64,000 nt of DNA. Origin: an uncultured Azospirillum sp. (GTDB lineage: Bacteria > Pseudomonadota > Alphaproteobacteria > CACIAM-22H2). The notes beneath the pieces are model-generated. The model searched no databases and was not told the origin of the DNA. It saw only the letters and a program-made list of their open reading frames with translations. The translations under genes and the position numbers were made by a program. Each line of letters begins with the position of its first letter. Positions within the stretch are counted from its first letter, which is position 1. This document shows positions 6,087-39,640 of this stretch, one piece after another. The DNA is taken from contig CAYQDN010000004.1 of the NCBI GenBank assembly GCA_964416335.1, forward strand, positions 64,518-128,517, given 5' to 3'.

Positions 6087-6096
6087 CGAGCGGTCC

Positions 6097-6121
6097 GTCC
6101 CCGCACGACAGGTGCGGGGAC
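6097..6121 (-). promoter_or_regulatory. intercistronic stem-loop between the binding-protein gene and the first permease gene
   Basis: Perfect 10-bp inverted repeat GTCCCCGCAC-gacag-GTGCGGGGAC in the 46-nt gap between the binding-protein stop (6133) and the permease start (6086). Confidence 0.5.
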
Positions 6122-6132
6122 GGGATCGGGGC

Positions 6133-7154: not shown

Positions 7155-7646
7155 TCAGCGCACGGCCATGCAGCTCAGCAGGATGTCGGGCCGCATGCCG
7201 TCTTCGGACAGCGGCAGGACGATGCGCCGCGCCCCGCGGTAGTCGCGGTCGGGGAAGCCCAGCGGCATGTCGAGCGTCATCGGTTCGCCGGTCGTCACGC
7301 ACGCCGCCAGCCATTCCTCGATGTGGCGCAGCCGGCCGGGTGTTGCGACCTCGTCGAGATAGCGGTGCGTGACGTCGGCGCCGATGATGTTGACGAGCTC
7401 GGTTCCCACCAGCCGGTAGCGGAAGCGCACGGGCGGCAGCGTCGGACAGGCCGGGTGCTCGACATCGTGCAGGGCGAGATAGGGGAGGACGTTGCGGTCG
7501 ATCTCGACCATGTCGATGTCGCGCCGGGCGGGCATGCGCCGGTTGCCGCGCTTGGCCTGCCAGTAGGCATGGATGCTCGCGATCAGCGGCTCGTGCCCGC
7601 CGAAGGGCACGTGCCCGGCGAGGACCGGGGCGAGGGTTCGAAGCAT
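7155..7646 (-). CDS. hypothetical protein (possible PAS-like sensor fold)
   Basis: 163-aa ORF with balanced composition and an ATG start. No confident family assignment. Confidence 0.4.
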   Translation of the reverse strand: MLRTLAPVLAGHVPFGGHEPLIASIHAYWQAKRGNRRMPARRDIDMVEIDRNVLPYLALHDVEHPACPTLPPVRFRYRLVGTELVNIIGADVTHRYLDEVATPGRLRHIEEWLAACVTTGEPMTLDMPLGFPDRDYRGARRIVLPLSEDGMRPDILLSCMAVR

Positions 7647-10116: not shown

Positions 10117-10191
10117 TGGTGCCGGGTGAGGGGATTGAACCCCCGACCTTCGGTTTACAAAACCGCTGCTCTACCGCTGAGCTAACCCGGC
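10117..10191 (-). tRNA. tRNA-Thr (anticodon TGT)
   Basis: Reverse complement reads GCCGGGTTAGCTCAGCGGTAGAGCAGCGGTTTTGTAAACCGAAGGTCGGGGGTTCAATCCCCTCACCCGGCACCA. It has a 7-bp acceptor stem, D and T arms (GGTTCAATCC), the anticodon loop TT-TGT-AA and an encoded CCA. 75 nt. Confidence 0.9.
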
Positions 10192-10193
10192 AT

Positions 10194-11474
10194 CTATTTG
10201 ATACGTCTAAGTTTCGCCTTAGTATCCGTTCGCGTCCGTTCTGCCAAGTGGGACTTCTCAGTGGGACTTTGGCCTTTGAAGAGCGGACTTGCCGGTAACC
10301 GAGAGGTCGAGCGCATCGCCGCAACTGCGGCGCGTTTTGCGCTATCGGCGACCTCTGTATAGAGGGCGGTCGTGGCTGCGCTTTTATGGCGGGCCAAGCT
10401 TTGAGTGGTCGCCGAGGATGCGACCAGTGCCACCTGGGTTATGTATGTCGCGCGAAGGTCATGAAACCGCCAGCGTCCACCCATCCCGAACCTCTTGAGC
10501 ACGGTTGACCAAGCGCGTCGCGCATTCTTGATGGGGCGGGGCGGGAAAGGCCTTCCGTCGGATTGGAGACCTGGTGCTGAATACACAATCAATGATTCGC
10601 AAGCTTGCTTGCGCTCAGCAGCGAACATTGCAAGCCACGAGAGCAATTCTAGAGCTTCGTCATTTGCATTGAGTATCTCGTCCCGATTGGCTTTCGTTAT
10701 GGCTGCCGGAAGTCGGAGAGCTTCGGCTTCCCAATCAATCCAATTCGTTTTTGCTTTGAAAACTTCCGACAGGCGAAGTCCGAACAGGCGAACAAGAGCG
10801 GCGGCTTGCCAAAGGTGATCAGGTGTTGCCGGATCTGATTCAATTCGCGCTAGGACAGCCAGCGGAACCGGATTTGGATCCCTCTTTGCCTCGGTAAGCT
10901 TCTCGATTTTTGGCATCCACGTGAGGCGAAGCTGGCCGTCTGGTCCTCGTGTATTGTGAGCAAGCCGAAGCGTTGCCGAGAGCTGATCCAAATATCGATT
11001 GGTACGTGCAGGGGATCGCGGCCGATTGAGTTCGATCATCAAATCGGAAAGCTCTTCTTTATTGCTTCTGTCCGCAGTCTTTGGTCCGCCACGCCACTTC
11101 TTGACGATTTGCCTGCGGCAAAAGGCGCGATATTCCATCCAGCGGTTCGCTACCGAATCAATTGGGGCGGCAGGGCCAAAAAATTCAAGAATCTCCGCCT
11201 GCATAGGCGCTATATCGCGCCAATTTCTTAGATGACGAGCTTCCTCCACTCGCGCTGCAACAGCCTGCGCCAGCGTATAAACCTCACGGGTCGACAGGGC
11301 AGCCTTGGTGTCCTTTCGTGCGATAACCCGCGCCGCTTCTTCACACGCCTTGGCCTGACGTCGAGAGATCGCAGGTGAGCCATCCGCATTCATGCATTGG
11401 CGCTTGAAGCGAATGCCATTTACCCAAAAATCAAAAGTCCAGGATCTGGTCTTTTTATCGACGTAAATTGACAT
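10194..11474 (-). CDS. int: tyrosine-type site-specific recombinase (phage integrase family)
   Basis: C-terminal catalytic region RFHDLRATYITQ...LYTE (the HxxR...Y motif). About 425 aa. Its stop lies 3 nt from the tRNA-Thr 5-prime end. Confidence 0.9.
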   Translation of the reverse strand: MSIYVDKKTRSWTFDFWVNGIRFKRQCMNADGSPAISRRQAKACEEAARVIARKDTKAALSTREVYTLAQAVAARVEEARHLRNWRDIAPMQAEILEFFGPAAPIDSVANRWMEYRAFCRRQIVKKWRGGPKTADRSNKEELSDLMIELNRPRSPARTNRYLDQLSATLRLAHNTRGPDGQLRLTWMPKIEKLTEAKRDPNPVPLAVLARIESDPATPDHLWQAAALVRLFGLRLSEVFKAKTNWIDWEAEALRLPAAITKANRDEILNANDEALELLSWLAMFAAERKQACESLIVYSAPGLQSDGRPFPPRPIKNARRAWSTVLKRFGMGGRWRFHDLRATYITQVALVASSATTQSLARHKSAATTALYTEVADSAKRAAVAAMRSTSRLPASPLFKGQSPTEKSHLAERTRTDTKAKLRRIK

Positions 11475-11498
11475 TGATGTTCCCCGAGATATCTGTGT

Positions 11499-11921
11499 TC
11501 AGGTGACGCCGAGTTCTTTCAGCTTTGACAGCGCGGCGCGATGACTCGCGGATTCTGAACCCTCCGCCTTCACTTGGTGCAAATTCTCGTTGGTCACTTG
11601 TTGTGATGTCACTTTTGGAACAATGCGATTTCTTTTTTTGTACGCCTCTACTGATGCGGAAGAAACTCGGATAGGGCCGCGTCGGTTTGTTTCAACATTG
11701 TTTCTCCAGCCGGAGAGCTGGCCGTTCTGAATCAGCCTGAATGCCGTTGATTCACTGCAGCCCAGAATAAAAGCAGCACGTCCGATACTCATTCCCCAAT
11801 CTTCATAGTTCTCAGCTCCCGATGCTTCGGGCGCCAAGTCCTCGACGTGCCATTTCGGTGCGCGACGCTCGGTCAACCTATCAGTTCCCTTAGTGGGGTA
11901 GATCTCATTGAAACTCTGCAT
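11499..11921 (-). CDS. AlpA/excisionase-family HTH DNA-binding protein
   Basis: MSIGRAAFILGCSESTAFRLIQNGQLSGW matches the AlpA/Xis HTH_17 pattern. The HTH domain starts at the ATG at 11792, and the N-terminal 43 aa of the ORF may not be translated. It lies immediately upstream of int. Confidence 0.6.
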   Translation of the reverse strand: MQSFNEIYPTKGTDRLTERRAPKWHVEDLAPEASGAENYEDWGMSIGRAAFILGCSESTAFRLIQNGQLSGWRNNVETNRRGPIRVSSASVEAYKKRNRIVPKVTSQQVTNENLHQVKAEGSESASHRAALSKLKELGVT

Positions 11922-12221
11922 GGGATTTTCAAAATTTTCTTGGGTTTCGATTCTACAAAATAATAATCAATAAAATCAGATACATGCTATCCCCAGACCT
12001 GAAGTATCCACGATGGGACAGCGCTCAAGATTTCACGCGCGTCACGCGACGCGGGGCCCGCGTCGCAGTTACAGGTTGCGTAATTATTTTTCAGAATTTG
12101 TCAAGGTATGTGGACAGCCGTGAGTTGCGATATGGGCACCTTATTCAAGGCGCCGCGCCGAGCGCCACCGAACCAAGTTGCTCGAATGGCATTCCCAATG
12201 ATCGAGAATTGGCACCCTGAC

Positions 12222-12326
12222 GGGCCATAGTTTGCTTGTAGGCCTGGCCCACGCTGGGCCACATCAACGGAGCCATTGGCCCAGCGTGGGCCACCCGCAA
12301 TAAGAGGTGGACCATACTGGGCCAGG
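12222..12326. repeat. cluster of TGGGCCA motifs including an inverted pair of 18-mers
   Basis: TGGCCCACGCTGGGCCAC at 12245-12262 and its near-inverse TGGCCCAGCGTGGGCCAC at 12277-12294. Additional GGGCCA copies at 12222 and 12319. All lie in about 100 bp of non-coding DNA between xis and the parA-like gene. Confidence 0.6.
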
Positions 12327-12346
12327 CACAATTTATTGGGTCTGTG

Positions 12347-13324
12347 TCACGTACGATCGCGAAGTAGTGTGCCGCAGGCGTCGAACTGCTTGAATGCTGC
12401 CTTCAGAAATTCGCGCACGAAGTTCATCTGTGTAAGCCCTAGGTGCTCATCTGTGGCGCCAGCAGCGCTGAAAGAGATATTGAGGCGATCAATCCGCTGA
12501 AAGATTCCCGTCGAGATCTCAGGGATTTCTATCTCGATACCGCCAGCCGCTAGCAGCTCTCGGCGTGCATTAGAGCCGTTATATGCCGCGAAACTGTCGG
12601 CCATACGCATATTCTTGGCAGCAATCCAGTGGACGCGATCTCCGAGAAGTCTGACGGCTTCACCTAGGCTGGCGACACCGGTCGTAGAGCCATCAACAAG
12701 GAATAGGACAATGATTTCGAGTTCGTCGGCAGTGGCCGCATGCAAAGCCCCGCCATCCGCGAGCCATTGGAAAGCGCCTGGGCTTTTCCGGGCCGAGTAG
12801 TCAAAAAGGGCTATTGCAGGCCCAGCCCGGTCTAGAAGCTCGTCGAGCACAGGTGCGATGGAGTCGATATCCTGCGTATCGACAGCAATAACCGGCTTTG
12901 CGCAGAATCTTGAGAAATCCAGAACACTCGGATCGCCGTCATAAGCGGCATACTCGACTCCCTGAAAGTCGTACCAGGCAGAAAGTAGACCTGCCGTGAT
13001 CGAGCGTCCGACACCCCCCTTGCCGCCATGTACAAGGACAAGGCGCCGCTTAGCACCTTGGATATCAGGAGCGGCGGAAGATTGGAGGGCGATCGGTGCT
13101 TCGCGGATATCCATCTGCGGAATGTTTTGCGGCGGCGAAACGGGCGATGCCGATAGTGGCGTAACTTCGTCGCGGGGCAGGAACGCGCTCTGAAGAGTAA
13201 AGCGCGGCATCGTCGGATGCTCATTCTGCAGCCGCAAATAGGCTGCGACAGCCTCGACAGTCTTCGCGTCTCCGTCTGTCGGGACACGAACCCGGACCCG
13301 AACGCCTGTTGTCTGGTCTTCCAT
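12347..13324 (-). CDS. ParA/MinD-like P-loop ATPase with about 90-aa N-terminal extension
   Basis: Deviant Walker A VLVHGGKGGVGRS (Arg where the P-loop Lys is expected), followed by a ParA-like layout. It is located in the mobile-element backbone. Confidence 0.65.
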   Translation of the reverse strand: MEDQTTGVRVRVRVPTDGDAKTVEAVAAYLRLQNEHPTMPRFTLQSAFLPRDEVTPLSASPVSPPQNIPQMDIREAPIALQSSAAPDIQGAKRRLVLVHGGKGGVGRSITAGLLSAWYDFQGVEYAAYDGDPSVLDFSRFCAKPVIAVDTQDIDSIAPVLDELLDRAGPAIALFDYSARKSPGAFQWLADGGALHAATADELEIIVLFLVDGSTTGVASLGEAVRLLGDRVHWIAAKNMRMADSFAAYNGSNARRELLAAGGIEIEIPEISTGIFQRIDRLNISFSAAGATDEHLGLTQMNFVREFLKAAFKQFDACGTLLRDRT

Positions 13325-13616
13325 GATGAGCTCCTTTCTTGAAGCGGACCCAGGCAGGGTAATTGAGGCGGCTTAAAATCCCCCGATTCCGCCGGCCCCA
13401 AACGGTTCCGGTCTACGTCGCAGCTGTATGCGTCAGCTGCATGGCTTCACAAATTGGGCGACAATAAAATCGTCGCGAAATTTGGCCGTACGCGCTGCGA
13501 CGGATTCTCGCTCGCGACACTCGCGTTTACTCGTCTCACTCTCCATCGATACGCAGGTGTTTCACTGCGCCGGAGCCGCTGAGGGGAGTCACAGCTCGGA
13601 TAACCGCGAATTGGAC

Positions 13617-13742
13617 AGCTACCGCCTAGATCAGGGCAGCTACCGTCCGGAAAAGGCCCGCTACCGCCTGAAATCGAGCCGCTACCTTGTTTTTCCGGCG
13701 AGCTACCGCGGTCGATCACAAAATTCGTGAATAGCTACCGCC
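13617..13742. repeat. iteron-like direct repeat array (6 copies of AGCTACCGCC-like units) followed by AT-rich tract
   Basis: Copies start at 13617, 13638, 13659, 13681, 13701 and 13733, giving a 20-22 bp spacing and then 32 bp. A roughly 120-bp AT-rich segment (13745-13870) lies immediately downstream. The array is upstream of mobC and divergent from the parA-like gene. Confidence 0.7.
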
Positions 13743-13907
13743 AATTAGTCGATGCGATTTTTTAGGTGAATCAATATATTCAAATAAAATCATATAGATA
13801 TGGTATCTTCAGGAGTTTTGAACGGATGATAAATTAGATAGGCAGGATTACGATAATGGCGTACAATTAATTCTACTCTACTCATTATCGGAAGGAATTT
13901 GGGTTCG

Positions 13908-14447
13908 ATGGCATCGGCAAACCCAGTCCGTGCGCCTTCGCCAGAGGAGCCTTCTGGCTCAATCGATCGGGTGTCGGGAAGTCAGACGATGCCGGAAAAG
14001 AGGAGACTTGGACGGCCACCTGGCTCGGGGGCGAGCTCGCCCAGGCTATCGGGTCGCCTGAACATTCGGCTGGCAGAGACCGAATGGGCTGTTATCCGTG
14101 CCGCAGCAGCTGAAGCCGGATGGTCGGTAAGTCGGTATGTGCGTACCGCGTTACTTGAGCGCGCCAGGGATACGAGAATTGGCGTCCTTGCCCGAGAGGA
14201 GCGCGAGCTGATGGCGGCGGGGCTATTCGAGCTACATCGCCAAGGCAGCAACCTCAATCAACTCGCCTTTGCGGCAAACAAGGCGCTGGCGCTCGGCCGG
14301 CTACAGGAGTTTCCAGACGGATCTGATCTCGAGGAGGCCGCAGCGGCGGCGAAAGCCGCCATCGGAAGAATAACGACGCTTCTTGAGTCTGCTGGTAGCC
14401 GACTTCATCGATCCTCCAAAGCAGGTTCCAATGTGGCGGAGCGATGA
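13908..14447 (+). CDS. mobC: MobC-family mobilization (relaxosome accessory, RHH) protein
   Basis: RLNIRLAETEWAVIRAAAAEAGWSVSRYVRTALLERA matches the ribbon-helix-helix core of MobC. ATG at 13908 is preceded by GAAGGAA. The ORF track starts at a TTG at 13899. Confidence 0.7.
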   Translation: MASANPVRAPSPEEPSGSIDRVSGSQTMPEKRRLGRPPGSGASSPRLSGRLNIRLAETEWAVIRAAAAEAGWSVSRYVRTALLERARDTRIGVLAREERELMAAGLFELHRQGSNLNQLAFAANKALALGRLQEFPDGSDLEEAAAAAKAAIGRITTLLESAGSRLHRSSKAGSNVAER

Positions 14448-16503
14448 CACCGATTTCTGGAAGCGGCTGCGTGCCGGTAAGCTCGATGAGCGCGATCATG
14501 ATGCGCTCGGATTTCTGCCCCTAGGCCATCGTGGCGAGAAAGCGTTTATCCGACTTGCGATCCGGGCGAGAGCGCGCCGAATACTGACGGATTGGGGGAC
14601 AAAGCCCCGCAAGCGAACCGGAGTCATGACAGGCCGTGGGCACGGGTCCGCTCCATTGCTACCGCTTCAACCGCCACCGGCCATCGTGGTTAAACAAGTA
14701 TCTGTCGCGCGGCCAAAAGAGGCACTGCGCCGAATTGCTCGCTACATCGGACGGCTCGATGTCGATTACGAAGACGGCAAAGCGGAATCTGCAGCTGAGC
14801 GCACTTTGACGGCGGCCGATCCAGCTGACTCTGCCAAGAAGAAAAGAAAGCCAGCAACTGCCTCACTCGATGCATCGAAAATTGAGCGGAGACCGCCAGC
14901 CATTTTCGACGCCAATGGAAACAAGATCGATCGCGACGAGATGCTCGCGCTTCTGGAAGACTGGGGCCTATTTGCAGACCGCGAGCATCTGACCCCAAAG
15001 GGACGAAGAGTGCTCACGAATGGGGGTGATGGAGCCCTGCGAAACCTCACCGAAGCTGAAGCGTTCTCAGCCGTCCAAGGGCGACACATCGTCATCTCCT
15101 TTCCGAAGAACGATCGGCTCTACAATTCAAAACTGGAAGAGATTGCGCGCCAGTTTCTGAAAGAGACATTTGGCGCTTGGGGGTACCCAGCCATTGCAGC
15201 GGTGCATGCAGAACACGGGCGCTTCCGTCATCTGCATATCCTGGTTGGGAACGTGAAGACATGCTCGCTCGCAATTGAAAATGTCGATCGCCGGCGCCTG
15301 CGCGACAAAAATATCGAGCGTTTCTTTTTTGACCTCGACGGATTCATGGCTGATGGCTTGCGTCTTGCGGCGGTTCAGGTCGCGGAGAAGTTCGGATTCC
15401 ATCTCGATGCCTCTCGCCGCGAAGATCGGCGTGATGTCGTAGACAGAATTCTCGCCGGAACTGAGCGGCTTCGCCCTCGTCCAATCAATGAAAAGTGGGA
15501 CGATCGATCTCTGGAGTTTTTCGCCGAGCGGGAGCTCGCACGGCAGAAGACTGAAGGTTCGATCAATCCATTGCGTGAAATGAATCCAACGCTTCGTCGC
15601 CTTGTGCAACGAGCACCGAGCTTTGTCATCAAGCATGTTGACACGCTCGTGGCCAATTTTCTGGCCGACCAGCGTCGACGCAATGCTTCGGAGCCTTATC
15701 CTGTTCCGGCAACCAAAGTGGAAATGGGAGGTGGCTTCATCCAGCGTATCTTCGGTGTTGCCGGTACACCCGAACGCCCTGTAACCCAGCCGGATGGTTC
15801 ACTTCAGCCTTTTGCCGATGCAATCCGAAAGCGGCAAATATTCGAAGATCAGGGCGGAGTTGATCGAACAAATGAGGCGATCGAGATGTGGGATGACTTG
15901 CGGCGCGAAGACGCGGCACTTGCAAACACAGCTCTCGTAACCTGGCCGGAGCTTTTTGGTCCAGTTACAGAGAGCGCAATTGGTCTACGAAAAGACTCGG
16001 AACTAGTAGACCTGACCAAGTCCGTCGCTTTGCCGACGAATTTCGCGCTGGATCCCGAGGCGGAAAAGCAAGATTCAAAATGTCAAAAGCATGCAAGCCC
16101 TGATGCCAGAACGGCATTGATGGTTCGTGCATTCAATGCACTTTCAACAAAGCTTGAAGAACTGTCAGATTTCGACACTGGAGACCGCACGGCGCGCATC
16201 GATCAATTGGCAATCTCCGACAGTTATCTGCAGTTGGCAAAGACCATCAATGCAGCTTTTCCAGACGATATTGATATGTTGCAGCAGGCGGTCGAGTTGA
16301 GAAGACTGTCGGCGATTGTCCGATCATTGGAGCGCGTGCCCACAAACGGCGATATGCCAAAACAGATCGAAGAATTCTTGATTTCTATCGAACCTGATAT
16401 GGCTCCAAAAAAGCCCGCTTCAATAGCGTCGCTCGAGCCAACTAAGAAAGACGGAGGTACCGAACTTCAGAAGAAACTTCGAGGGGGGCGGGAACTGGAT
16501 TGA
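14431..16503 (+). CDS. conjugative relaxase (MobA/VirD2-like, His-triad type)
   Basis: Motif III HAEHGRFRHLHILVGN (H-x-E-x5-H-x-H) with an upstream candidate catalytic Tyr (NDRLYNSK) and a long C-terminal region. The first ATG, at 14431, overlaps the mobC 3-prime end by 17 nt. The ORF track starts at a TTG at 14383. Confidence 0.75.
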   Translation: MWRSDDTDFWKRLRAGKLDERDHDALGFLPLGHRGEKAFIRLAIRARARRILTDWGTKPRKRTGVMTGRGHGSAPLLPLQPPPAIVVKQVSVARPKEALRRIARYIGRLDVDYEDGKAESAAERTLTAADPADSAKKKRKPATASLDASKIERRPPAIFDANGNKIDRDEMLALLEDWGLFADREHLTPKGRRVLTNGGDGALRNLTEAEAFSAVQGRHIVISFPKNDRLYNSKLEEIARQFLKETFGAWGYPAIAAVHAEHGRFRHLHILVGNVKTCSLAIENVDRRRLRDKNIERFFFDLDGFMADGLRLAAVQVAEKFGFHLDASRREDRRDVVDRILAGTERLRPRPINEKWDDRSLEFFAERELARQKTEGSINPLREMNPTLRRLVQRAPSFVIKHVDTLVANFLADQRRRNASEPYPVPATKVEMGGGFIQRIFGVAGTPERPVTQPDGSLQPFADAIRKRQIFEDQGGVDRTNEAIEMWDDLRREDAALANTALVTWPELFGPVTESAIGLRKDSELVDLTKSVALPTNFALDPEAEKQDSKCQKHASPDARTALMVRAFNALSTKLEELSDFDTGDRTARIDQLAISDSYLQLAKTINAAFPDDIDMLQQAVELRRLSAIVRSLERVPTNGDMPKQIEEFLISIEPDMAPKKPASIASLEPTKKDGGTELQKKLRGGRELD

Positions 16504-16677
16504 ATGCACTCGAATCCCAAGTCTGCTTTCACCAAATTCTCGAATAGTGATTTTGAAGGTGATTTTACACGATGCCATCTCAGCGCGGTTCATGACTAAA
16601 AGTTATAACTTCGAAGAATCCTTGGGGCGCCTATAAACTGTGTGGCGTTTGCAATCTTAGTATGAATAGCATGATCA

Positions 16678-19600
16678 ATGTGTGCCGAACGAAGGAATCC
16701 AGAAGCTGATGCCAAGTTAATAAATCTGGAAGAGCTTATGGCGTCACTGAACCTTGCGCAAAAGAGCAAGGGCACTTTGCGAATTTCAGAGCTGTTGGAA
16801 TCCTGCGGCGAATTTTCCAGTTCTATTCGATTGCTTCACCCAATAAAGGCGATTGCGACGATTGGTGGCTTGCTGACCCATCCGGGCCTACAAGCAAATT
16901 GCCTTCGTCTAGAGGCGATGGCTCATTTGGCAGTATGTGAAGCACGCGGTAAGCAGAAGCCAAATGGAAAATTGATTACGAAGTTCTTTCATTCTTTGGA
17001 AAATTCTCTGGGAGTTCTTGAAGATCCAATCGAGGATCTTTTCGTTTCCCGTGTTTCCTCAGAAAGAGGGGATTATCGAATATTTGGTGGCATAGCTGAG
17101 GGGGCCGCCTTTCAGCTGCAGCGGTTCCTGGACATAGTGGAAATGATGCCGAGTGGCACCATTTATGATGAGCTGCGTGACGAGATCCATTCCTTACTTC
17201 TGTTGTCTGACGTAGTAGCTGATCGCGCCGATTTGCCGGCCAACATCGTTGGAGCTGCAATGCCGCAATCGCGTATGCCATTGAGCATTCTGAATGCATT
17301 ATCGTCACTTAGAAAAACCGTTACGTTCACGACCCAAGAGCTATCGAAGCTAGGTATACGCCGCAATCATTTGCGAGGGTTTTGCTTTCAACCCGATGAT
17401 AGATCGGCGCTTGAAAGTGAGGCCATTGGGCACAGCCAACTGGAAAGTAAGCCAATAATCTTGACGGAGAGTGGGGTCGTGCTTGCGCTCCCCACTGCTG
17501 TAAACGTCGCAGTTCGTCGACGTATCATCGAGCGCTGCCATCAGCTTGGTATCCAAGAAGGACTCTTTAAATCGTACCTTGGTTGCTACGAGCGGACTCT
17601 TCACAACATGCCGATCTTGGGCATACCGCGGCGAGCACCAGTGCGTTTTCGGGCAGTTGGCCCATGCTGGTTTGCGCAGTTCATGACAGAAATTGACGCT
17701 GGTCGATGGTTACATTTCATAGCGATTGCAGATGATTTCGTGGGCTACGATAAAAATGGTCTGGCAGGTGTGAATGCCGATCCAGAAACCGCCGGAGCTT
17801 GCATCAAAGCCGAAATAGATAAAGCAATTGGATCTCTACAAGGAAAGCCAGAGTTTCGAAACGGCATAACACTCGTTGTGGTTTGTGGCTGGGGGCGAAC
17901 TTTTGCGACATCTCAGCAACCTGTTCGCCCAAATTGGAATTGGGAACTAATCAGCGCCCATGACCTTGCGACTTTGAGCTACTTGAACGGATTTAATCCA
18001 TGCGAGCTTTGGCGAGTTATCCATGACGAGGAAGAGCTAACTCGGTTTGATCTACGCCTTCAGAATCCCAATGGCTTGCTCAATTTGATCGCATGGGAGC
18101 GGCAGTTGAGCGGGCACCTCATTCCACATGCCAAACTCTTAGAAGTCGGTTCGACAGATAAACGTCCGACGATCCTCCAGATTGAACAGAACGGATTGCT
18201 AAAGCTGCGGGCGGAGGTTGCTATTGCTCACGATTGTCGGCGGCTTGGCGATAACAAGGGTCGAAGGTTAAGGGTTAGTCGCTTTGGGCAGGGGCACTTC
18301 CAAGAGGATAGACGGAAGGCAATTTATGTAGCCGAAGACGAGATTCTGGACGGCAAGTTAATGGGCGCGGTTGCGACGCCTGGTCGTGTTTGGTGGGTTT
18401 CCGTAGACGGTAATAGTCCGAGGGAAATGCTGTTTCAGTACTGGGAGATGCTTCTCCATTGGATGCACGAGTCCTCATCTGTACTCGATCTGGAGCTATC
18501 AAGCTTACTAGCCGGACCAATCCATTGGTCCGTTTGCTTTAATGAACTGACGCCGGCAATAGAAACACAACCGGGGCCTATCGATTGGTCGCGTGCCAGT
18601 TCTCTGCTTCAAACACGGATTTTTCCAGAGGATGGATCTGTATTCTTGGATGTGGACCCTCGTTTCCAAGAATCATTCCATCACCCTGAAAATCGAGCAG
18701 AGCGACTGCTCGTTGAAGTATTGGTCGAGGCAACAGCTCGATTGGTTGGGGCGAAGTTATCCGCAGAGCGTTTGGCAGAATTGGTAGGTCGAATCGTTCC
18801 GAATGTGGAAGCTAGACATATCCATGCATTTGAACAGCGTGAATTTAGAGATTTTTTCCGAGACAAGATCCCATCCAAATATATTTCGATAGCGCAGCAA
18901 GACGCCGCGAGATTGAGCCTTAGTCTTGGGTGGCGTGCGCGGCCACGTGAGGCGCTGGATTCGATCGTAGGAAAGCCAGAATGCACGACATTTCTAAATG
19001 CAACCGTAGCACTCTTGGAAGAGGAGCTTTGCCGCAATCTGGCTCGGTATCCCTGTGAAGCCTTGGTAAAGCGTGTTGTGCTCAACTATGAGAGCGCCAA
19101 TCAAGATTCTCTCACGTGGACTCGCTCTTCAGCAGCTTTGCTCGCTCTCTGTCGCGACAAGAGTGATGCGCTAGAGGTGATCTCCGATCGTAGCGCGGAA
19201 AGGAATGCTGTACTTCAGACATCTCGAATCATCATTGAAGCTGCCACGTGCGAGTGCCCGACGGAAGGTGGCGAGGCGGTCGGCGATATCGATGTCTCTC
19301 GGCTCATGGCAATCGTTTCGTGCATTGTGCATCTTGGCGGTTGGTCAGATGCTATTAGATGGGACGCGCTTGAGCCGCATTTAAAAATATCACCTTTTGG
19401 AGAAATTCTGAAATCGGCGCACTTCGAGGATGCCATTCTTGAGCCGTTCGGGCGCGCCAGTAGTGCGCGATTTGTGCGCGATGCAGTGTCGCGTTATCCC
19501 AAGCACTATGAAGAGATCAACGCCATTTCAAAGGTGGAGGCATCCTTCGATCAAGCGTTCGTAGTGGCCTTTCAGGCCGAGCTGGGAGTTTCTTTAGATG

Positions 19601-20478: not shown

Positions 20479-20603
20479 CAATCATGAGGCAATTGATCTG
20501 CCGTCCGCAATCGCCCGGTGCTTAGACGATCTATGCAATTTGGACTTAGGTATGAGAAATTGACAAAATTTATATCGCAATAGAGTTGCTTCCTGACAGT
20601 AGC

Positions 20604-21101
20604 CTAAATAGCAGAAGCCCCATCTCGGTTCGCGGCCGAGGTGGGGCTTTTTTGCATGGTTGTTTGTCGTTCCTTAGTCTCCCAGTTTTTAAATATCGAA
20701 TGATCGATCCAAGTACCCAATCGGCCCCACAGCGGTGGCCTATCATGTCGCTCGTCGATCCATTCCGTCGTATCGATGCAGTCGACCCTCGCCCAAACGG
20801 CGATCTCGCAAAGCATGTTTAGCCATCCGAGCGGCCGTGCTTCGTTTGCTGCCTTGCAGGACTGGAGTGCGCGGTTTGGGATCGCCCATAGCACTTCCCA
20901 GTAGATGTCGAGATCCGGCGGTAGAGTGGCAAAGGCCAGGGACCGGGCCTGCACTTCAGTCAGCGATTTCACGTTCGTGAAGTATGGCCGCGGGAGCGCG
21001 AACAGCAGCCGGATCCGCTCGGCGAAGCGCTCGAACTCCGGAAGGGCTGCCGTCTGTTCGTGGATATCAACGATCGTGGCTGTGCCGACCTGATGCATCA
21101 T
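20604..21101 (-). CDS. hypothetical protein (last gene of the NERD operon)
   Basis: 165-aa ORF whose start overlaps the upstream stop (ATGA). Its 3-prime end overlaps the terminator hairpin, so the true C-terminus may be shorter. Confidence 0.45.
   Translation of the reverse strand: MMHQVGTATIVDIHEQTAALPEFERFAERIRLLFALPRPYFTNVKSLTEVQARSLAFATLPPDLDIYWEVLWAIPNRALQSCKAANEARPLGWLNMLCEIAVWARVDCIDTTEWIDERHDRPPLWGRLGTWIDHSIFKNWETKERQTTMQKSPTSAANRDGASAI
20617..20653 (+). terminator. rho-independent terminator for the 1266-aa gene
   Basis: GCCCCATCTCGG-ttcgcgg-CCGAGGTGGGGC forms a 12-bp stem with one G-U wobble, followed by TTTTTT. It lies between convergent genes. Confidence 0.65.
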
Positions 21102-21436
21102 GAAGGGTACATCCCCTTTATCAACGTTTCCCGGATCTTTCGTAACTCTTCGTCGATGTCGATATTAGATTGGATCGAGCGCCGACGCTCGAATGCGGGG
21201 AATTCGAGCTCATCATCCTGCGTCGCTCGGACTGAAAGAATGAAATGCCCTTCGGCGATGCAGCGAAGGAGATAGTCGCGAACCGATATGCCCATCCGAT
21301 CGGCTACGGCTTTGGCGCGTTGGTAGGCGGCTCCGGATTCCAGGAACTTCAGCTCGATCGTTGGTGGCGCAGAGGGCGCCGCGCCGTCTTGCGATATGAC
21401 GGCCGGGCTCGGCGGAGTAGGGCGTGGGCCACTCAA
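21098..21436 (-). CDS. small ribbon-helix-helix (CopG-like) domain protein
   Basis: AYQRAKAVADRMGISVRDYLLRCIAEGHF resembles an RHH DNA-binding module. Both ends overlap neighbouring genes by 4 nt (ATGA), implying translational coupling. Confidence 0.45.
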   Translation of the reverse strand: MSGPRPTPPSPAVISQDGAAPSAPPTIELKFLESGAAYQRAKAVADRMGISVRDYLLRCIAEGHFILSVRATQDDELEFPAFERRRSIQSNIDIDEELRKIRETLIKGMYPS

Positions 21437-22707
21437 TAGCGCCAGACCCCACGATCGCCCTCCCGGCAGGCGACCACGTTGTAGGTCTTCCCCGAATAGG
21501 ACATCTCCGCGAACTGGCAGCCAGGGCGTCCGGTAACTGGCCCGAGCGCCCGGACCCAGTCCTTGTCGCCGGCGGCGATACGTTTCTCGGGCTCACTTGT
21601 CGCCTTGGTCAGGGCGGCCTGGATCGGGTCGGGTGTTGGTGCCGCCCGTGCTGGTGTTCTCGCGACGATTTGACTAGCCGGTGGTGGCGTTGGCGCCAGT
21701 ATCTGGCTGGGGCGGCCTGCCCAGATTGAGAAGGCGATGAGAATTGCCAGCCCGATGCCAAGCTTGTTGATCCAGCGACTTGGCTTCCGGATCGGTTCAG
21801 GGGGCTTGGGGCTTATCTTGGTCAAGAAAGTTCGCACGTCCTCGGACTTCAGGTGCGGACCTTCATGACGACGCTGTTCTTCGACCGGTGGTGCCTTCGA
21901 AAAACTCAAGGGCTTCGGTGACGGGTTGATGATCGCTTCGATCTCTTGTCGAACGAGATCAGGACCTGGTCGAACGTCGAGCTCGCTCGTCATCCAGCTG
22001 ATCAGCCGGGTGGTATCGTCCCCCGAGAGCAGATAACCGATACCCGGTCGTGACAGCTCATCGGCGACCAGTGCCCACATACCGAATTCGGCCAGATCCT
22101 CCGCGAAGACGATCCGCATGAAGTCACGGTCGGGGGCATAGAGGCGGCTCAGGATCGATGGACCGATCTGCGTCCGGGATGTATGGGGAAACACCATCAG
22201 CTGGCCGATCCGGGGGCCCAGATCGATGCCGGTCATTGCTCGGGCGGTAAGCGAGAAAGTATCAGTCAACCGGAACAGCTGCGCCGGCCTTACGTGGCCG
22301 CCTGTCGGTTGGCCACTCCGTGTGAAATGAGCCCAACGTACGCTTGGGCCGGGGCGGCCGTTGACCTCGACGAGGCCGCCCTTGACCTCGATCAAAGCTA
22401 CCCCGTGGGGGGTAACGGCGACGAAGTCCGCCTCGAGGCGGTGATTGCCGTCGAAGGGCAGGGGTAGCGAATAGGCTGCGTATCCGATGAACTGGGGTGT
22501 GTCCCACAGGAAGGATTCGTAAACGAGCCGCTCGCCGTCGTGTTGCGGTTCGGCGAGGACGACCGGGGCCGGCCATGGCGTGACCCGTACCTGTTCGGGG
22601 CGACCAGATGGGAGTGCCTCAACCGACGTCCCCTCTCGTCCAGTTTGGTTGACGAGATTCCAATAGACTCCGCGGGCCTGCCAAGCGGCCAATTCGTTGT
22701 TGTCCAT
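21433..22707 (-). CDS. NERD (nuclease-related domain) protein with one transmembrane helix and Pro-rich linker
   Basis: NERD core HRLEADFVAVTPHGVALIEVKGG (D/E...E-x-K). A hydrophobic helix WINKLGIGLAILIAFSIWAG is followed by a Pro-rich segment and a C-terminal domain. Confidence 0.7.
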   Translation of the reverse strand: MDNNELAAWQARGVYWNLVNQTGREGTSVEALPSGRPEQVRVTPWPAPVVLAEPQHDGERLVYESFLWDTPQFIGYAAYSLPLPFDGNHRLEADFVAVTPHGVALIEVKGGLVEVNGRPGPSVRWAHFTRSGQPTGGHVRPAQLFRLTDTFSLTARAMTGIDLGPRIGQLMVFPHTSRTQIGPSILSRLYAPDRDFMRIVFAEDLAEFGMWALVADELSRPGIGYLLSGDDTTRLISWMTSELDVRPGPDLVRQEIEAIINPSPKPLSFSKAPPVEEQRRHEGPHLKSEDVRTFLTKISPKPPEPIRKPSRWINKLGIGLAILIAFSIWAGRPSQILAPTPPPASQIVARTPARAAPTPDPIQAALTKATSEPEKRIAAGDKDWVRALGPVTGRPGCQFAEMSYSGKTYNVVACREGDRGVWRY

Positions 22708-22724
22708 GCGGCCTCGAGACTACG

Positions 22725-22756
22725 TATGAAGTATGCTTTATTAAGTATACTTCATA
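22725..22756. promoter_or_regulatory. palindromic operator in divergent NERD/XRE promoter region
   Basis: TATGAAGTAT-N12-ATACTTCATA: perfect 10-bp inverted arms in the 82-bp gap between the NERD gene start (22707) and the XRE gene start (22790). Confidence 0.6.
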
Positions 22757-22789
22757 GAGTCGAAGCTGCCAACGGGATTTCCTCGCGGT

Positions 22790-23020
22790 ATGAAAGCGCG
22801 GGAAATCCTTGCTCGGAATGTGCGGCGGTTGCGTGCGGAGCGCGGGATGTCACAGGAGAAGCTTGGGTTCGAGGCTGAAATTTCGATGACCTATGTAAGT
22901 CACATCGAAACTGAAAAATATGCGGCCACAATTGATGTGATTGGGAAGGTCGCGAAGGCTCTGAAAGTGACGTTGAGCGAGCTGTTATCCGAGCCGCCAA
23001 AGCAGCGCCGCTCTAAATAA
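22790..23020 (+). CDS. XRE-family (Cro/CI-type) HTH transcriptional regulator
   Basis: ILARNVRRLRAERGMSQEKLGFEAEISMTYVSHIETEKYAATIDVIGKVAKALKVTLSELL is a canonical HTH_3 domain. 76 aa. Confidence 0.85.
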   Translation: MKAREILARNVRRLRAERGMSQEKLGFEAEISMTYVSHIETEKYAATIDVIGKVAKALKVTLSELLSEPPKQRRSK

Positions 23021-23575
23021 ACATACGGTGTCATTTTGCGCGGACAACTGGCACATCCGATCAGCGCGTCGTGTAGGCCGGCGTAAGGTTCGCAAACCGC
23101 GTCTGCCAACTCGGGCGAATACCCTCGCCGGCGACTTTTAGCGATCCGCGTCCCATGCGCCCGTTCAGGGCGTCGACAGCAGCCATGAGCTTGATCCGTC
23201 GCGGATCGCCATTGGTCTCGAACAGAGAACGCTGTCCCGTTCCGGCGGACGCCAGGCCATCCGCAACGACGCCTGCCTTCGAGTATCAGAAGCAGTCCCG
23301 CCAAATCTGCTTTGCCGCTTTGACCGAAGCCGATACCAGCTCGAACGCGTCGGCCGACGGCTCGAGCAGCCGCGCACTGGTCGAATTCGCATAAGATGGA
23401 TCGCCATTGAGATTGCCTACAAATGTCTAGCTGTTTTGCCAAAGATCATTGACCTGTTTTCATCGCAGCGAAAAGTAAGAATATGATTTTAAATGATTAT
23501 TCGCCCATTCGAGCATATGAAACATATCAGGAACAAATTTCTTCAAGATAATCGAGAAACATCCTATGATAGGCC

Positions 23576-24907
23576 ATGTCAAAAGTTGTCACCGACAATC
23601 AGGTATTGGGGGAGCTGGGCGAGACAGCGATCAAAAAAATCGTGCTCGAAACTGGTTTCATCTATGAGCATCGCGGGCGACTGGAAGCAGGTACAGACGG
23701 TCTAGTCGAGCTACGTGATCCGCGCAGTGGCGCGCCACTTGGCAAAATGCTTGCTGTGCAAGTTAAATCCACAGATGTCGGGAAGTATATTCGTGAAGAT
23801 GAGCGCGGATTCGAATACCTACTCAAGCCAGATGATCTGAAATATTGGCGTACGTCAAACATCCCAGTCGTGATTGTCCTCTGGCGTAAGTTCGACCAGA
23901 CAGCTTATTGGAAAGAAGTCACTGATTGTGTAGGAGGCGAAGAGCGCCGCCTGAAATTCGACAAGCGCGCAGATGTTTTTGATGGTTCATGCGGGGATCG
24001 GCTCGGTGAGCTGACCATCGACCGTCGCACGCCTGGCGTATTCCTTCCGCCGCTGAATCACGGGGAAGGCGCGATTATCAATCTGTTGCGGGTGAAGTTG
24101 CCAGAGGAAATATTCATTGCAACATCACCATTCGGCAGCGGTCGGGATGCCGTTCCCGAGCTAGTCAAGCATGCAAATATCCGCTTCGATTGGGTCATCC
24201 GTAAGCGCCGTTATGTTTCCTTCTTCGATCCCCGAGAATATGGCACCTCTTCGATTGTCGATCTCGATCAAGTCGAGGCTGTCGATGCGAGGCAAATCAC
24301 GATGAACGATGAAACAGATGATTTGAATGATACTATTGATTTGCTGCGCCGCACGATCGAGCGACAAGTAGGAGCACAGCTTTCCTATCTGCGCAAAGAT
24401 CGACTCTTTCACTTCAAGGCTACCGATGTTCGCAAGGGCCGTAGCTATCGCTACATGGCGAACGTCAATGAGACCTCTGCCAAGGTGGTAAGCGTCTATT
24501 CAAGCAAAAAGAAGGAAGGGCGTGGCTACGTCCGACATCACGCGGCTCGATTGCGCTTCGAGCGACTATCTGACGAATGGTTTCTTGTTATTGATCCAGA
24601 CTATTACTTTACGTTTGATGGATTTCAGCCGCACCGCTATCCAGAAGCATTGCTCGCTGGCAAGAAGCGCCTTGAGCGTAATGCCGCTGTGCGCGGCCAG
24701 GTCATAATGTGGCAGCACCTACTGGTTAACAGCGGAAAGAACGAAGTTGGCCTGTTTGATGCGGGCAAACCAGCGCCGTTTCTTCAGTTCGAACGACTTC
24801 CGGTTCTCCAGCTCTCCCAGGCCGTTCCGGAAGATTCATGGAGCCGGACCGACCCCCGCGCTAAAGATATGGAAGCTTTCGACCTCTTCGAGGAAGGAGG
24901 TCTGTAA
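23576..24907 (+). CDS. DUF4365/DREN-type PD-(D/E)xK nuclease domain fused to APAZ-like region (short-pAgo partner, SPARDA-type)
   Basis: N-terminus GELGETAIKKIVLETGFIYEHRGRLEAGTDGLVELRD...MLAVQVKST gives a D...E...QxK nuclease motif characteristic of DUF4365 (Mrr-like). The roughly 300-aa remainder, of unknown fold, sits where APAZ does. Its stop overlaps the pAgo start (TAATG). Confidence 0.7.
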   Translation: MSKVVTDNQVLGELGETAIKKIVLETGFIYEHRGRLEAGTDGLVELRDPRSGAPLGKMLAVQVKSTDVGKYIREDERGFEYLLKPDDLKYWRTSNIPVVIVLWRKFDQTAYWKEVTDCVGGEERRLKFDKRADVFDGSCGDRLGELTIDRRTPGVFLPPLNHGEGAIINLLRVKLPEEIFIATSPFGSGRDAVPELVKHANIRFDWVIRKRRYVSFFDPREYGTSSIVDLDQVEAVDARQITMNDETDDLNDTIDLLRRTIERQVGAQLSYLRKDRLFHFKATDVRKGRSYRYMANVNETSAKVVSVYSSKKKEGRGYVRHHAARLRFERLSDEWFLVIDPDYYFTFDGFQPHRYPEALLAGKKRLERNAAVRGQVIMWQHLLVNSGKNEVGLFDAGKPAPFLQFERLPVLQLSQAVPEDSWSRTDPRAKDMEAFDLFEEGGL

Positions 24908-26361
24908 TGAGTTTCAAAGCACAAGTTTTTGATGAACCGATGCTGGAATTTGGCGATGGTGGTCAACATTGCGATCCCCGGCAAGGCTTGCGCGAATATG
25001 GGCCATTGCAGCCAGGTTCGGGCGATATCGTGCGCGTGGGCGTGATCGGAACGGACGAAACTGTCGCGGGTTTTGCAGAATTTTTGGAGGAGACCGGACG
25101 AGGCATCGAGAGCGGCAACAAGCAACTCATAAATCTGAACCCGGATTTTCCCGGATTGGGAAATCAAAATCCGTTCCGCTGCAAGTTCGAGGTTCCGGAG
25201 GGAGCAACCGCAACTATTTCGCGACGACAGGTTAACGAAATCAGAGAAATCAAACGGCATGACGACGCTGTCAATTACGCAGTCGAACTGATCACAGCGC
25301 AACTTTCCGCTCTGGTCGAGAGTAGCGCCAAGCCCGATGTTATCGTGCTCGCTTTGCCGGTGCCGCTGATCGAAAAGCTGGTAAATGCCAAAAGTGAGGA
25401 AGAGGCAGAAGCCGCCGAAGAAAACGAAGATCGCGGAGGGATGTTAAACTTCCGTGACCTGTTGAAAGCCAAGACTCTTCATCTACCGGTACCGAGCCAA
25501 ATCGTATGGCCAGATACATGGGATGACGCCGCAAAAATTCCTCGCAAAGTGAAGCGGGACAGCAATCGCCAAACGCAAGTCAAAGCGACTCGTGCATGGA
25601 ATCTATTGAACGCGCTGTTCTACAAAACGGGTAAGGTGCCATGGCGCTTGCTTCCAGATCGGGCTGAATATCGTACAAGCTTTCTTGGTATTGGGTTCTA
25701 TCGCGATATTGACGGTCAGCAGCTTTGGACTAGCACGGCACAGATGTTTGATGAGCGAGGTCGTGGGCTCATCCTGAGGGGCGCCCGTGCGCAGACAGAA
25801 ACTCGCGGTCGCCATCCGTATCTGACGGCGCACGACGCAGAAGATTTAGTTTCGCAATCCATTGCGGCGTACAAGTCGCATCATCGCCATGTCCCGGCAC
25901 GCTTGATTGTCCTAAAAACATCACGGTTTCGACCCGAGGAAGCAGAGGGCATAGATGCCGCCCTCAAGAGATTCAATGTCGAGATGTGCGATCTTGTTTG
26001 GGTGCAAGAAAGTTCACCGATCGCGATCTTCCGTGACGGCAACTATCCAGTTTTACGAGGAACGTTTGTCGATCTGGGAGGCAAGGGCTTACTTTACACC
26101 CGCGGTAGCGTGCCATTCTATGGAACGTATCCAGGACTACGAATTCCCCGCCCGTTAATGCTCGTGCCGCACCAGAATTCGGATAGTAATCTGCTCACAT
26201 TGGCGAAGCACGTGTTGGCGCTGACCAAGGTCAATTGGAACTCCACGCAATTTGACCAGAAACTTCCTGCACCAATCAAAGCGGCTCGAGAAGTCGGTCG
26301 CATCCTAAAACATGTGAAATTTGGCACGGCAGTCTCGCCGGATTTCCGCCGATATATGTGA
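24907..26361 (+). CDS. short prokaryotic Argonaute (MID-PIWI only, catalytically inactive type)
   Basis: MID-like PDVIVLALPVPLIEKL. Argonaute-typical LLNALFYKTGKVPWRL followed by FLGIGFYRD, which occupies the position of the first RNase-H strand. A RIIFYRDG-like LIVLKTSRFRPEE follows. No DEDX catalytic tetrad is evident. 484 aa. Confidence 0.7.
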   Translation: MSFKAQVFDEPMLEFGDGGQHCDPRQGLREYGPLQPGSGDIVRVGVIGTDETVAGFAEFLEETGRGIESGNKQLINLNPDFPGLGNQNPFRCKFEVPEGATATISRRQVNEIREIKRHDDAVNYAVELITAQLSALVESSAKPDVIVLALPVPLIEKLVNAKSEEEAEAAEENEDRGGMLNFRDLLKAKTLHLPVPSQIVWPDTWDDAAKIPRKVKRDSNRQTQVKATRAWNLLNALFYKTGKVPWRLLPDRAEYRTSFLGIGFYRDIDGQQLWTSTAQMFDERGRGLILRGARAQTETRGRHPYLTAHDAEDLVSQSIAAYKSHHRHVPARLIVLKTSRFRPEEAEGIDAALKRFNVEMCDLVWVQESSPIAIFRDGNYPVLRGTFVDLGGKGLLYTRGSVPFYGTYPGLRIPRPLMLVPHQNSDSNLLTLAKHVLALTKVNWNSTQFDQKLPAPIKAAREVGRILKHVKFGTAVSPDFRRYM

Positions 26362-26905
26362 CAACCCCGGCATACACCCCAGATGGCCTCAACACATTTC
26401 TCAGTGCCTGCGGAATCAAGGGCAGGCCAACTTTCGAAACTCAATTTGCAGTTACGCTTGATACTAGCCTGCAGACTGATTGAAGTCTTTCAACCCTCGC
26501 GAGGCCCATGCGGCAACCAAGCCGACTGAGGGGCTAAAAGGCCCGAAGGAGGATGTAGAAAGTCGTGGGCGGAACGAGGGAAAGATGATGGCGCGCTAAA
26601 AGGTAGTGCTAGAACGTCCAAGCGGCTGAGAACATAGGGCATGCCATAGCAGCTCCCTGAAAAGTAATAAAGAATCAATAGGCTAGCCAAATCAGGCCGA
26701 GCTCAGTAGGTTGACAGTTTGCTAATCGATTCAGAGTCTAACGCATGCCTACTGGAGAAATCCGCAACAAAGTCTGCAGGATGATCGCGAGGATTACCTA
26801 CAATTTACAATTGATTGCGCACGGCCCCGTCGGGCAGCGCGATAGCTGCTGCGATACGATGCAGGACCTCAGTCTGCGTCATTCAACCGTATTGAGGCCG
26901 TACTG

Positions 26906-28330
26906 ATGGTCGATACCTACCAAGGCAGCCTTTTCTCTGGCGACTTTCTGACTGACTCCATTACTCGGCTGCCCGATTGGGCGGAGGTGTCCGACAGCGA
27001 AATCGCCAGCCTCTCCGGCAAGCTTACTGAAATTATCGCTAAGTTTCCAACCAGGCAGTCGCCCAACGAAGCGCAAACTGAAGATGATCTCATCTGGAAA
27101 GTGCTCGGTGCACTCGGCTGGACGGATTTCCTCCGTCAGCAGAATCTTGCGCCGAAAGGTCGCGAGGACGTGCCGGATGGTCTGTTGTTCAGGAATGACG
27201 CCGCCAAGGCCCAGGCCAACAAGACCCCAGATGAATGGAGACGCTACGAATTCGGGCTTGCCGTTGTGGAATCTAAGCGTTGGAATCGTCCTCTTGATCG
27301 CCGATCAGGAACGCGCGGTGAAGAAACCGCGCCATCGACGCAGATGCTGCGCTATTTGCGCCGCGTCGAGGATCTAACGACTGGCAAATTAAGATGGGGC
27401 ATTCTTACCAATGGCGGACGTTGGAGGCTCTACTATCAAGGAGCCCGCTCGGTCGCCGAACACTTCTTCGAAATCGACCTTGCGCAGATTCTAGGAATTG
27501 AGGGGCACGAGGGCGGCTTGTTCTCACTCAAAGTGAGCCAACGCGCCCATGCGCTTCGCGTTTTTTATCTGATATTTCGGAAGGCCGCCTTTATCGGCAC
27601 CGCAAGCGATCCGCGGACTTTCCATCAACGCGCGCTCGATGAAGGCCGCTTCTATGAAGAAAGAGTTGCCGCCAATCTTTCTGATCTCGTGTTCGGCGAA
27701 GTCTTCCCAAAGTTGGTGCACGCCATAGCAAACGCTGCGCCCAGCGCGCCGTTGCAAAGTGTGCGCGAGGCCGCCCTGATTCTTCTCTACCGCCTCCTAT
27801 TCATTCTGTATGCAGAAGATCGCAACTTACTTCCTGTGCGTGATCCTCGTTACGACGATTATGGATTGCGTGATAAAGTGCGTGGAAATGTCGGAGATCG
27901 CAAAACCAAGAACGACGTGTTCTCCGATACGGCGGCCCGCTATTGGTCAACGATTGACGATTTGTGTCGAGCCATCGATAAAGGTGACAGCTCGATTGGG
28001 CTTCCTCCTTACAATGGCGGGCTGTTCGACCGGGAGCGTACACCTCTGCTGACAGAGGTGCGGATACCCGATGCGGTCATGGCCGACGTCATCGACGCCT
28101 TGTCCTTTGAGCAAACGCCGGCAGGACGACGCTATATCAACTATCGTGATTTGAGCGTGCAACAGCTCGGCTCGATATACGAGCGCCTGCTTGAGCATGA
28201 AGTTGACCTGACCGGGTTTTCTTGGACCAGGCTGATTGAGATAATCAGTTTGGAAAGGAGCCCCGGTCAGGTCACGTGTAAAGCGCTGACAGAAGTCTCC
28301 CTCCGTAGTCCGGCCGGTGGACGATCGTGA
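26906..28330 (+). pseudogene. truncated type IIL/IIG (MmeI-like) restriction-modification enzyme, N-terminal nuclease plus helical part only
   Basis: N-terminal PD-ExK (PDGLLF...GLAVVESKRW) and the conserved LLYRLLFILYAEDRNLLP motif of MmeI/Eco57I-like enzymes. It stops after 474 aa without any methyltransferase motifs, and a frame-shifted 68-aa ORF follows (28317-28523). The gene ends at the island GC boundary. Confidence 0.65.
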
Positions 28331-28649
28331 GAAGAGCGTTAGAAAAAGTTCCGCAGACGGAGAAAGTTTCTCAATTGAAACGATCGGCCGCTTCGCCATC
28401 CTGATGGCAAAGCGAACAACAGATGTCGGTCCCATGCCTGAAATTCTAGAAACTCTCTTTAAGAGCTTCGGATTTGTCGCAGCGCCACTGGTGCTGCTCT
28501 ATCTCCTTGGGCTCGTGCACTGACGCTGCATGGATTGCGTGCAGCGTGTCTGCAAGCTTTATTCGGGCAACCAACAAGAAGTTCTAACTGGCTTCGGGCC
28601 ATCGGCATCGGTGCAAATGCGGTCAACGCAACCATCGAAAGGCCGACAC

Positions 28650-39582: not shown

Positions 39583-39640
39583 TCGATATTTCCGTTGGAT
39601 CGCCTCGACCGCCTGCCGGCGTCGATCGGGCGCTACAAGT

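Follow-up and report, generated by a model that had tools for sequence, protein, structure and literature searches.

Integrative mobilizable elements carry an integrase, an excisionase-like gene, a relaxase with its accessory protein, and adaptive cargo, and lack mating-pore genes. The element analyzed here is a low-GC segment of ~18 kb (~10.19–28.30 kb) that begins at a tRNA-Thr(UGU) gene within a 64,000-nucleotide stretch of DNA (hereafter, the window), which belongs to a metagenome contig of an uncultured Azospirillum sp. (CAYQDN010000004.1). Its integrase lies on the 5′ side of the tRNA, a configuration that is rare but already catalogued: of the 3919 islands in the Islander database, 3760 have a 3′ fragment of the tRNA gene (tDNA) and 159 a 5′ fragment, and the Islander filters explicitly let a 5′ fragment lie upstream of the tRNA (Hudson, Lau and Williams 2015, PMC4383910). 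It is likely that an integrative mobilizable element integrated at the anticodon loop of the host tRNA-Thr(UGU) and that its distal end was later deleted, a reading that explains the odd boundary of the island without a new integration mechanism.

Integrase and tRNA-Thr(UGU) at the left boundary

The GC content is 0.65–0.70 over 1–10 kb, 0.47–0.61 over 10–28 kb, and 0.64–0.69 over 29–35 kb. ARAGORN places the sole tRNA of the window, tRNA-Thr(UGU), at 10117–10191 on the minus strand, with a perfectly paired acceptor stem (GCCGGGT/ACCCGGC) and an anticodon loop at 10155–10161. The stop codon of a high-GC (~70%) host gene encoding a DUF1345 protein lies 6 nt from the tRNA 3′ end. On the 5′ side is the gene of an intact tyrosine integrase of 426 aa (10194–11474, minus strand; PF00589 and PHROG integrase), the TAG stop of which (10194–10196) is separated from the tRNA 5′ end by only 2 nt (10192–10193). 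An intact tRNA thus marks one end of the island, and the island lies on its 5′ side. Both the low-GC island at tRNA-Thr and the placement of the integrase at the tRNA 5′ side had been claimed in an earlier note on this DNA, and both hold. The catalytic R-K-H-R-H-Y set of the integrase is complete, with the family-invariant residues R234, K261, H338, R341, H363, and Y372. The protein has no match in PDB and no relative among GenBank phages, and belongs to an alphaproteobacterial family without a characterized member.

The protein collection contains 26 homologs of the integrase besides itself, and the DNA context was recovered for thirteen relatives. At eight loci from seven relatives, the integrase adjoins the 3′ end of an inverted tRNA, which is the textbook layout: tRNA-Pro(CGG) in L011, L022, and L023; tRNA-Arg(CCT) in L012/L021 (a single contig), L024, and L036; tRNA-Pro(GGG) in L030; and tRNA-Thr(CGT) in L076. 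The layout of the window is repeated in L014 and L019, the integrases of which are 55% identical to that of the window and precede, on the same strand, an intact tRNA-Thr(TGT). The most informative relative is L029, a 38,964-bp viral contig with an integrase 57% identical to that of the window. Phage genes flank this integrase on both sides, with tail fiber genes downstream, so that L029 is the unintegrated form. Just past the stop of its integrase lies GCCGGTTTAGCTCAGCGGTAGAGCAGCGGTTTTGTAA, which corresponds to tRNA-Thr positions 1–38, up to the last base of the anticodon loop. This element attachment site (attP) is identical to the window over the 5′ half of tRNA-Thr through the anticodon loop (10155–10191, minus strand), the block held in common with the attP of relatives, and diverges straight after TTTTGTAA; the blastn match between the window and L029 spans 10155–10199. 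It is the attP of this relative, not that of the window element itself, in which the tRNA 5′ fragment was found. Because the L029 attP holds the tRNA 5′ half, recombination in the loop would rebuild the tRNA immediately downstream of the integrase, which is the arrangement of the window, L014, and L019.

The 3′ end of the integrase gene contains two direct AAGTCCCACT repeats with 13-nt spacing (10247–10256 and 10260–10269, minus strand), which are unique in the window and are putative P-arm integrase-binding sites. They are the AGTGGGACTT pair, which reads AAGTCCCACT on the gene strand and was already suggested in the earlier note to be arm-type sites. Equivalent pairs (AGTCCC[A/G][A/C][T/C], 13-nt spacing) are present in the integrase 3′ end of the relatives. 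The pairs start 108–110 and 95–97 nt from the middle anticodon base at every one of the eight close loci examined (Thr-5′ type, four; Pro/Arg-3′ type, four), and this distance is unchanged whether the tRNA is in direct (Thr) or inverted (Pro, Arg) orientation. L029 has two additional copies on the other side of the core, at +87 and +99. Since the 13-nt spacing puts the two arm copies in different reading frames, the conservation is at the DNA level. The fixed distance from the anticodon in the relatives supports the assignment of the AGTGGGACTT pair as arm-type integrase-binding sites. The sequence comparison likewise supports a single family geometry, consisting of arm repeats, ~55 nt, a tRNA half of ~38 nt, and a crossover in the anticodon loop, in which members would differ only in the tRNA-like segment, either direct (5′ half) or inverted (3′ half). 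Moreover, tRNA-Pro(CGG) 3′-half sites in viral contigs have the anticodon stem-loop as their starting point, with the same repeat motif close by, and two of these sites adjoin integrases that are 34–35% identical to that of the window.

The following course of events is proposed. The attP of the incoming element would have consisted, in order, of the integrase 3′ end with the two arm-type repeats, ~55 nt, a copy of tRNA positions 1–38, and the P′ arm. Recombination in the 7-nt anticodon loop would have replaced the host 5′ half and its native promoter by the element copy, bringing the integrase directly upstream of the rebuilt tRNA and displacing the original 5′ half to the far end of the element. 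The present tRNA-Thr would then be a hybrid gene, with an element-derived 5′ half and a host-derived 3′ half. A later deletion presumably took about two-thirds of a type IIG restriction-modification gene together with the P′ arm, the displaced 5′ half, and the native tRNA promoter. After this deletion, the element would no longer excise, and both the 5′ half of the tRNA and its transcription would come from element DNA. This raises the idea that a host tRNA may become dependent on the DNA of an element for its 5′ half and promoter.

A more far-reaching proposal is offered tentatively, at somewhat less than even weight. One integrase family would switch between capture of 3′ and 5′ halves by flipping the tRNA-like segment of attP while keeping the arm-to-anticodon spacing fixed; transcription of tRNA-Thr(UGU) would then start within the integrase gene or run through it, and the host would be locked in after deletion of the native copy. 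Under this proposal, the arm spacing would stay fixed upon flipping because both tRNA halves are ~38 nt long. If it is true, RNase P would cut the integrase message, the integrase stop being 2 nt from the mature tRNA 5′ end, and the loss of the displaced native copy would lock the host into keeping the integrase-proximal end of the island. A neighbor-joining tree of 24 integrases is star-like, with the Thr-5′ type in three clusters, and is compatible with one polarity switch as well as with several.

Two further sets of tRNA-Thr half-sites were encountered. Scanning of viral contigs for the tRNA-Thr(UGU) sequence yielded L045 (~5266–6783) and L058 (~4805–6135), where 5′ half-sites ending at the same terminal anticodon-loop base each lie downstream of a tyrosine integrase unrelated to the family of the window; tRNA-Thr(UGU) may be a recurrent target of 5′-type integration. 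In L074 (3900–4560; also in L075), a 55%-identical integrase adjoins a relaxase and has a ~440-bp insertion or duplication in its 3′ end, followed by a stop codon, 3 nt, and a degenerate tRNA-Thr 5′ half, from which 11 internal nt are deleted; the 3′ half is missing.

Right boundary and competing explanations

The last gene of the island (26906–28330, plus strand) encodes the N-terminal ~35% of a type IIG restriction-modification protein and matches PADLOC profile positions 44–443 of ~1250–1350. Homology to a 1361-aa gene product of a Celeribacter plasmid is confined to residues 8–468 and stops at nt 28303, and the remainder of the gene is absent throughout the window. Type IIG systems combine nuclease, methyltransferase, and specificity functions in a single polypeptide of ~1250–1360 aa, of which only the part equivalent to residues 8–468 of the homolog is encoded here. 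The last conserved part of the truncated gene contains a 20-nt imperfect inverted repeat with a nested palindrome (28204–28274), and the end of one Logan contig (L082, at 28232) falls within this repeat. The right flank is the sulfate-assimilation (cys) cluster of the host, which has the same gene order in a related metagenome-assembled genome (L071). Because the type IIG homology stops at 28303 and L071 shares the host cys-promoter motif located at −72 relative to sbp (start 28650), the right junction is placed between 28304 and ~28572. This zone (28304–28572, no strand), the putative deletion endpoint, has no features of an attachment (att) site and no Rfam match.

Searches of the whole 64 kb with k-mers, blastn (word size 7), and Rfam detected no displaced tRNA copy, and a motif search revealed no arm repeats (P′ arm) near the right end. 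The direct 5′ tDNA fragment that would mark the other end of a 5′-class island is thus absent from the 64 kb, and for this reason the island is filed as a truncated remnant. The 9-nt tRNA match GCTGCTCTA at 28493–28501 has flanks that are not tRNA-like, and, by chance alone, a 400-nt target is estimated to contain ~0.1–0.2 such 9-mers. An 11-nt tRNA match at 56599–56609 was also rejected as chance, as it lies in a coding open reading frame (ORF) and its flanks are not tRNA-like. Excision is unlikely because the intact integrase is left without a partner site, and the island is most likely a deletion-fixed remnant. These results agree with much of what the earlier note had said of the right side: the edge coincides with a truncated restriction-modification gene, there is no att repeat, and the 9-nt match is attributable to chance. 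The right limit is at ~28304 rather than at the 28530 given in that note. Of the two options it left for the island, "decayed or fixed" is the better one, and the "non-canonical att site" turns out, on the evidence of the L029 attP, to be that of the minority 5′-fragment class. The alignment it proposed of tRNA-Thr against the 28.3–28.7 kb region yielded nothing beyond the chance-level 9-mer (blastn word size 7, k-mers).

Comparison with related genomes lacking the island, also suggested in that note, produced no empty site, either by look-ups of the flank proteins or by a scan of the genome collection. An exact-protein look-up with the left-flank DUF1345 protein returned only short contigs ending within the tRNA, and the genome-collection scan returned only relatives of ≤43% identity, none with an adjoining tRNA. 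The right-flank sbp protein (342 aa, start 28650) is present on the source contig only. Its closest ortholog, in L071 (75% identical), shares the cys gene order and has no tRNA-Thr upstream. The intergenic region of L071 holds a tRNA 3′-end fragment (T arm, acceptor, and CCA) at ~7420–7460, ~560 nt upstream of the sbp ortholog, which is not called by ARAGORN; this region may be an integration scar too.

Several observations weigh against integration followed by deletion. Same-sample Logan short-read contigs end at 10146 or start at 10163, inside the tRNA, and those with the pAgo gene end at 28232 and 28112, short of the right junction; neither junction is independently confirmed by these contigs, and the sequence is of metagenome origin. 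No empty-site genome was found with which to map the host-element junctions. Scans of the window, L014, and L029 revealed no consensus promoter upstream of the tRNA on the correct strand, and the default guess is therefore that tRNA-Thr is transcribed together with the integrase gene and released by RNase P. Finally, none of the integrase and backbone genes is disrupted, a slightly odd finding for a fixed remnant unless the deletion was recent.

The best surviving alternative is an assembly chimera, in which an extrachromosomal element (plasmid-like or a free attP form) was joined to the chromosome through the 38 nt that it has in common with tRNA-Thr. The metagenomic source of the contig, the break of same-run Logan contigs inside the tRNA, and a right junction that is not an att site would all fit such a join, and the repeats and P-loop NTPase features of the island could serve plasmid maintenance. 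Nevertheless, a chimera is unlikely: it needs a second false join at ~28304, where no shared repeat exists, the junction between integrase and intact tRNA-Thr is also found in two unrelated samples (L014 and L019), and no Rep protein was detected with Pfam or PHROG. Still less probable is a complete and still mobile element with a right att site that lacks a recognizable tRNA copy. The intact state of all backbone ORFs (those of the integrase and the excisionase-like gene among them) and the 9-nt match near the right end speak for it, but that match is at chance level in flanks that are not tRNA-like, the arm repeats found on both sides of the core in the attP of the relative are missing near the right end, and the last gene is cut at residue 468 of ~1361. 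An incidental adjacency, either through insertion into intergenic DNA upstream of tRNA-Thr or with the whole tRNA as cargo, would suit the lack of a direct repeat flanking the island but is highly improbable, given that the tRNA segment in the attP of the relative is exactly the 5′ half of tRNA-Thr, that the spacing between arm repeats and anticodon is conserved, and that a 70%-GC host gene adjoins the tRNA 3′ end, so that the tRNA is not wholly within the island. Entry into the anticodon loop with subsequent loss of the distal end is thus retained as the preferred explanation.

A second low-GC block (0.47–0.63, mostly 0.50–0.58) begins right after cysH and runs from 35900 past the window end at 64000. 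It contains an AbiEii/AbiEi toxin-antitoxin pair (36859–38576) and an IS3-family transposase gene (38775–39931, minus strand), followed by TetR, IclR, transport, and catabolic genes. Neither an integrase nor a tRNA fragment was found in this block. It was considered as the missing island end and rejected, as tRNA fragments and arm repeats are lacking and the block lies beyond the syntenic host cys cluster.

Mobilization backbone and defense cargo

Upstream of the integrase is an HTH_17/excisionase-like gene (11499–11921, minus strand), a putative recombination directionality factor with weak Pfam and PHROG matches (E 2e-4 and 9e-4). A similar small HTH_17 gene is found upstream of the integrase, in synteny, in L011, L014, and L076. 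The next gene (12347–13324, minus strand) encodes a P-loop NTPase-like protein of 325 aa, possibly ParA/MinD-like, with a Walker-A-like GGKGGVGRS motif. Its best sequence match in PDB is ParA (E 0.2), it has no Pfam or PHROG match, and a single homolog was found. A poor structure model (pLDDT 49.7) gave weak fold matches to NifH, MipZ, and HypB (SIMIBI-class P-loop), which are only suggestive. Relative to the deviant Walker A motif of ParA/MinD (KGGxxGK[ST]), the P-loop lysine is replaced by R in this protein and by C in its sole homolog; with this lysine missing from the sequence, ATP hydrolysis may be absent. Six GCTACC-core repeats followed by an AT-rich stretch were located at 13618–13739 (plus strand) by repeat search and sequence reading, the first five at 21-bp intervals and the sixth 32 bp beyond. 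They could be an oriT, centromere, or oriV element.

The repeats are followed by a gene for a NikA-like ribbon-helix-helix relaxosome accessory protein (13899–14447, plus strand; PF21983, E 1.6e-10) and by that of a divergent relaxase of MobA/VirD2 type (14383–16503, plus strand; PF03432, 34.6 bits against a cut-off of 24.6), the start codon of which is uncertain. A tblastn search of PLSDB plasmids for relaxase typing returned no match, and Pfam/PHROG-type profile searches found no type IV secretion, mating-pore, or coupling-protein families among the ORFs of the window. The profile matches therefore uphold the backbone of integrase, excisionase, and relaxase without transfer genes, and with defense cargo, that was proposed in the earlier note. 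Three of its labels need adjustment: "mobC" is indeed a relaxase accessory gene, of the NikA-like type; "parA-like" is weakly supported, by the GGKGGVGRS motif and not by Pfam; and the "iterons" are the GCTACC repeats, with the candidate roles named above.

The defense cargo (a homolog of Upx and a SPARDA pair) consists of known systems. The Upx-like anti-phage protein (16678–20478, plus strand) matches the PADLOC Upx profile over nearly its full length (E 1.7e-250) and scores 901 bits against NCBIfam NF042954, under the 1900-bit cut-off. The SPARDA-type pair called by PADLOC (23576–26361, plus strand) consists of adjacent genes for a DREN(DUF4365)-APAZ protein (23576–24907) and a MID-PIWI short pAgo (24907–26361). 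Both are near-identical to the components of solved complexes (PDB 9qbq/9qbl, E 6e-255 and 4.5e-294), and in 9jsb the components are named "DREN-APAZ" and "pAgo". The module 23435–26406 has 93.2% DNA identity, with sharp limits, to plasmid-like contigs (L017 and L018) that carry Rep3, ParA, and Mob_Pre genes; judging from this match, plasmids and the island appear to exchange it as a cassette.

Four genes on the minus strand lie between Upx and SPARDA: a three-gene cluster (20604–22707; 165, 112, and 424 aa) with no function assigned, and an ORF of 180 aa (22900–23442). None of them has a PADLOC, PHROG, or NCBIfam match; the 424-aa protein has only a sub-threshold NERD match, and the 180-aa ORF has no Pfam match. 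By their position, these uncharacterized genes are candidate defense genes.

Comparison with known systems

The adjacent DREN-APAZ and short pAgo genes are arranged as in the described SPARDA systems (PDB 9qbq, 9qbl, and 9jsb); no difference was noted, and the pair is ordinary cargo. In having a relaxase and no coupling protein or secretion genes, the window element belongs with the integrative mobilizable elements. It departs from them in lacking one att end, in a relaxase that is very divergent, and in an oriT that is only a candidate; its mobility is doubtful, as excision is doubtful with the right att missing.

Like the 5′-fragment class of Islander, the window has a tyrosine integrase, a target inside the tRNA gene, an island upstream of the tRNA, and, in all likelihood, an element that restores the tRNA gene with its own 5′ copy. 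Complete islands of that class have a displaced 5′ fragment, whereas the window has none. The locus provides a sequence-level example of this rare class, including an attP, that of L029, and the conserved arm-site geometry. Such islands would be overlooked or wrongly delimited by island finders built around 3′ tRNA fragments only.

The common class that targets the anticodon loop and captures the 3′ half of the tRNA is represented by the relatives at tRNA-Pro(CGG), tRNA-Arg(CCU), and tRNA-Thr(CGU), the integrases of which are 48–53% identical to that of the window. As in the window, these relatives have AGTCCCAC arm repeats in the integrase 3′ end, ~96 and ~109 nt from the anticodon, and an excisionase-like gene upstream of the integrase. 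In these relatives, however, the tRNA is inverted, the element gives the 3′ half, and the native promoter is kept, whereas the polarity is reversed in the window. What is added here, as read from sequence, is an alphaproteobacterial integrase family that uses both polarities at the same geometry.

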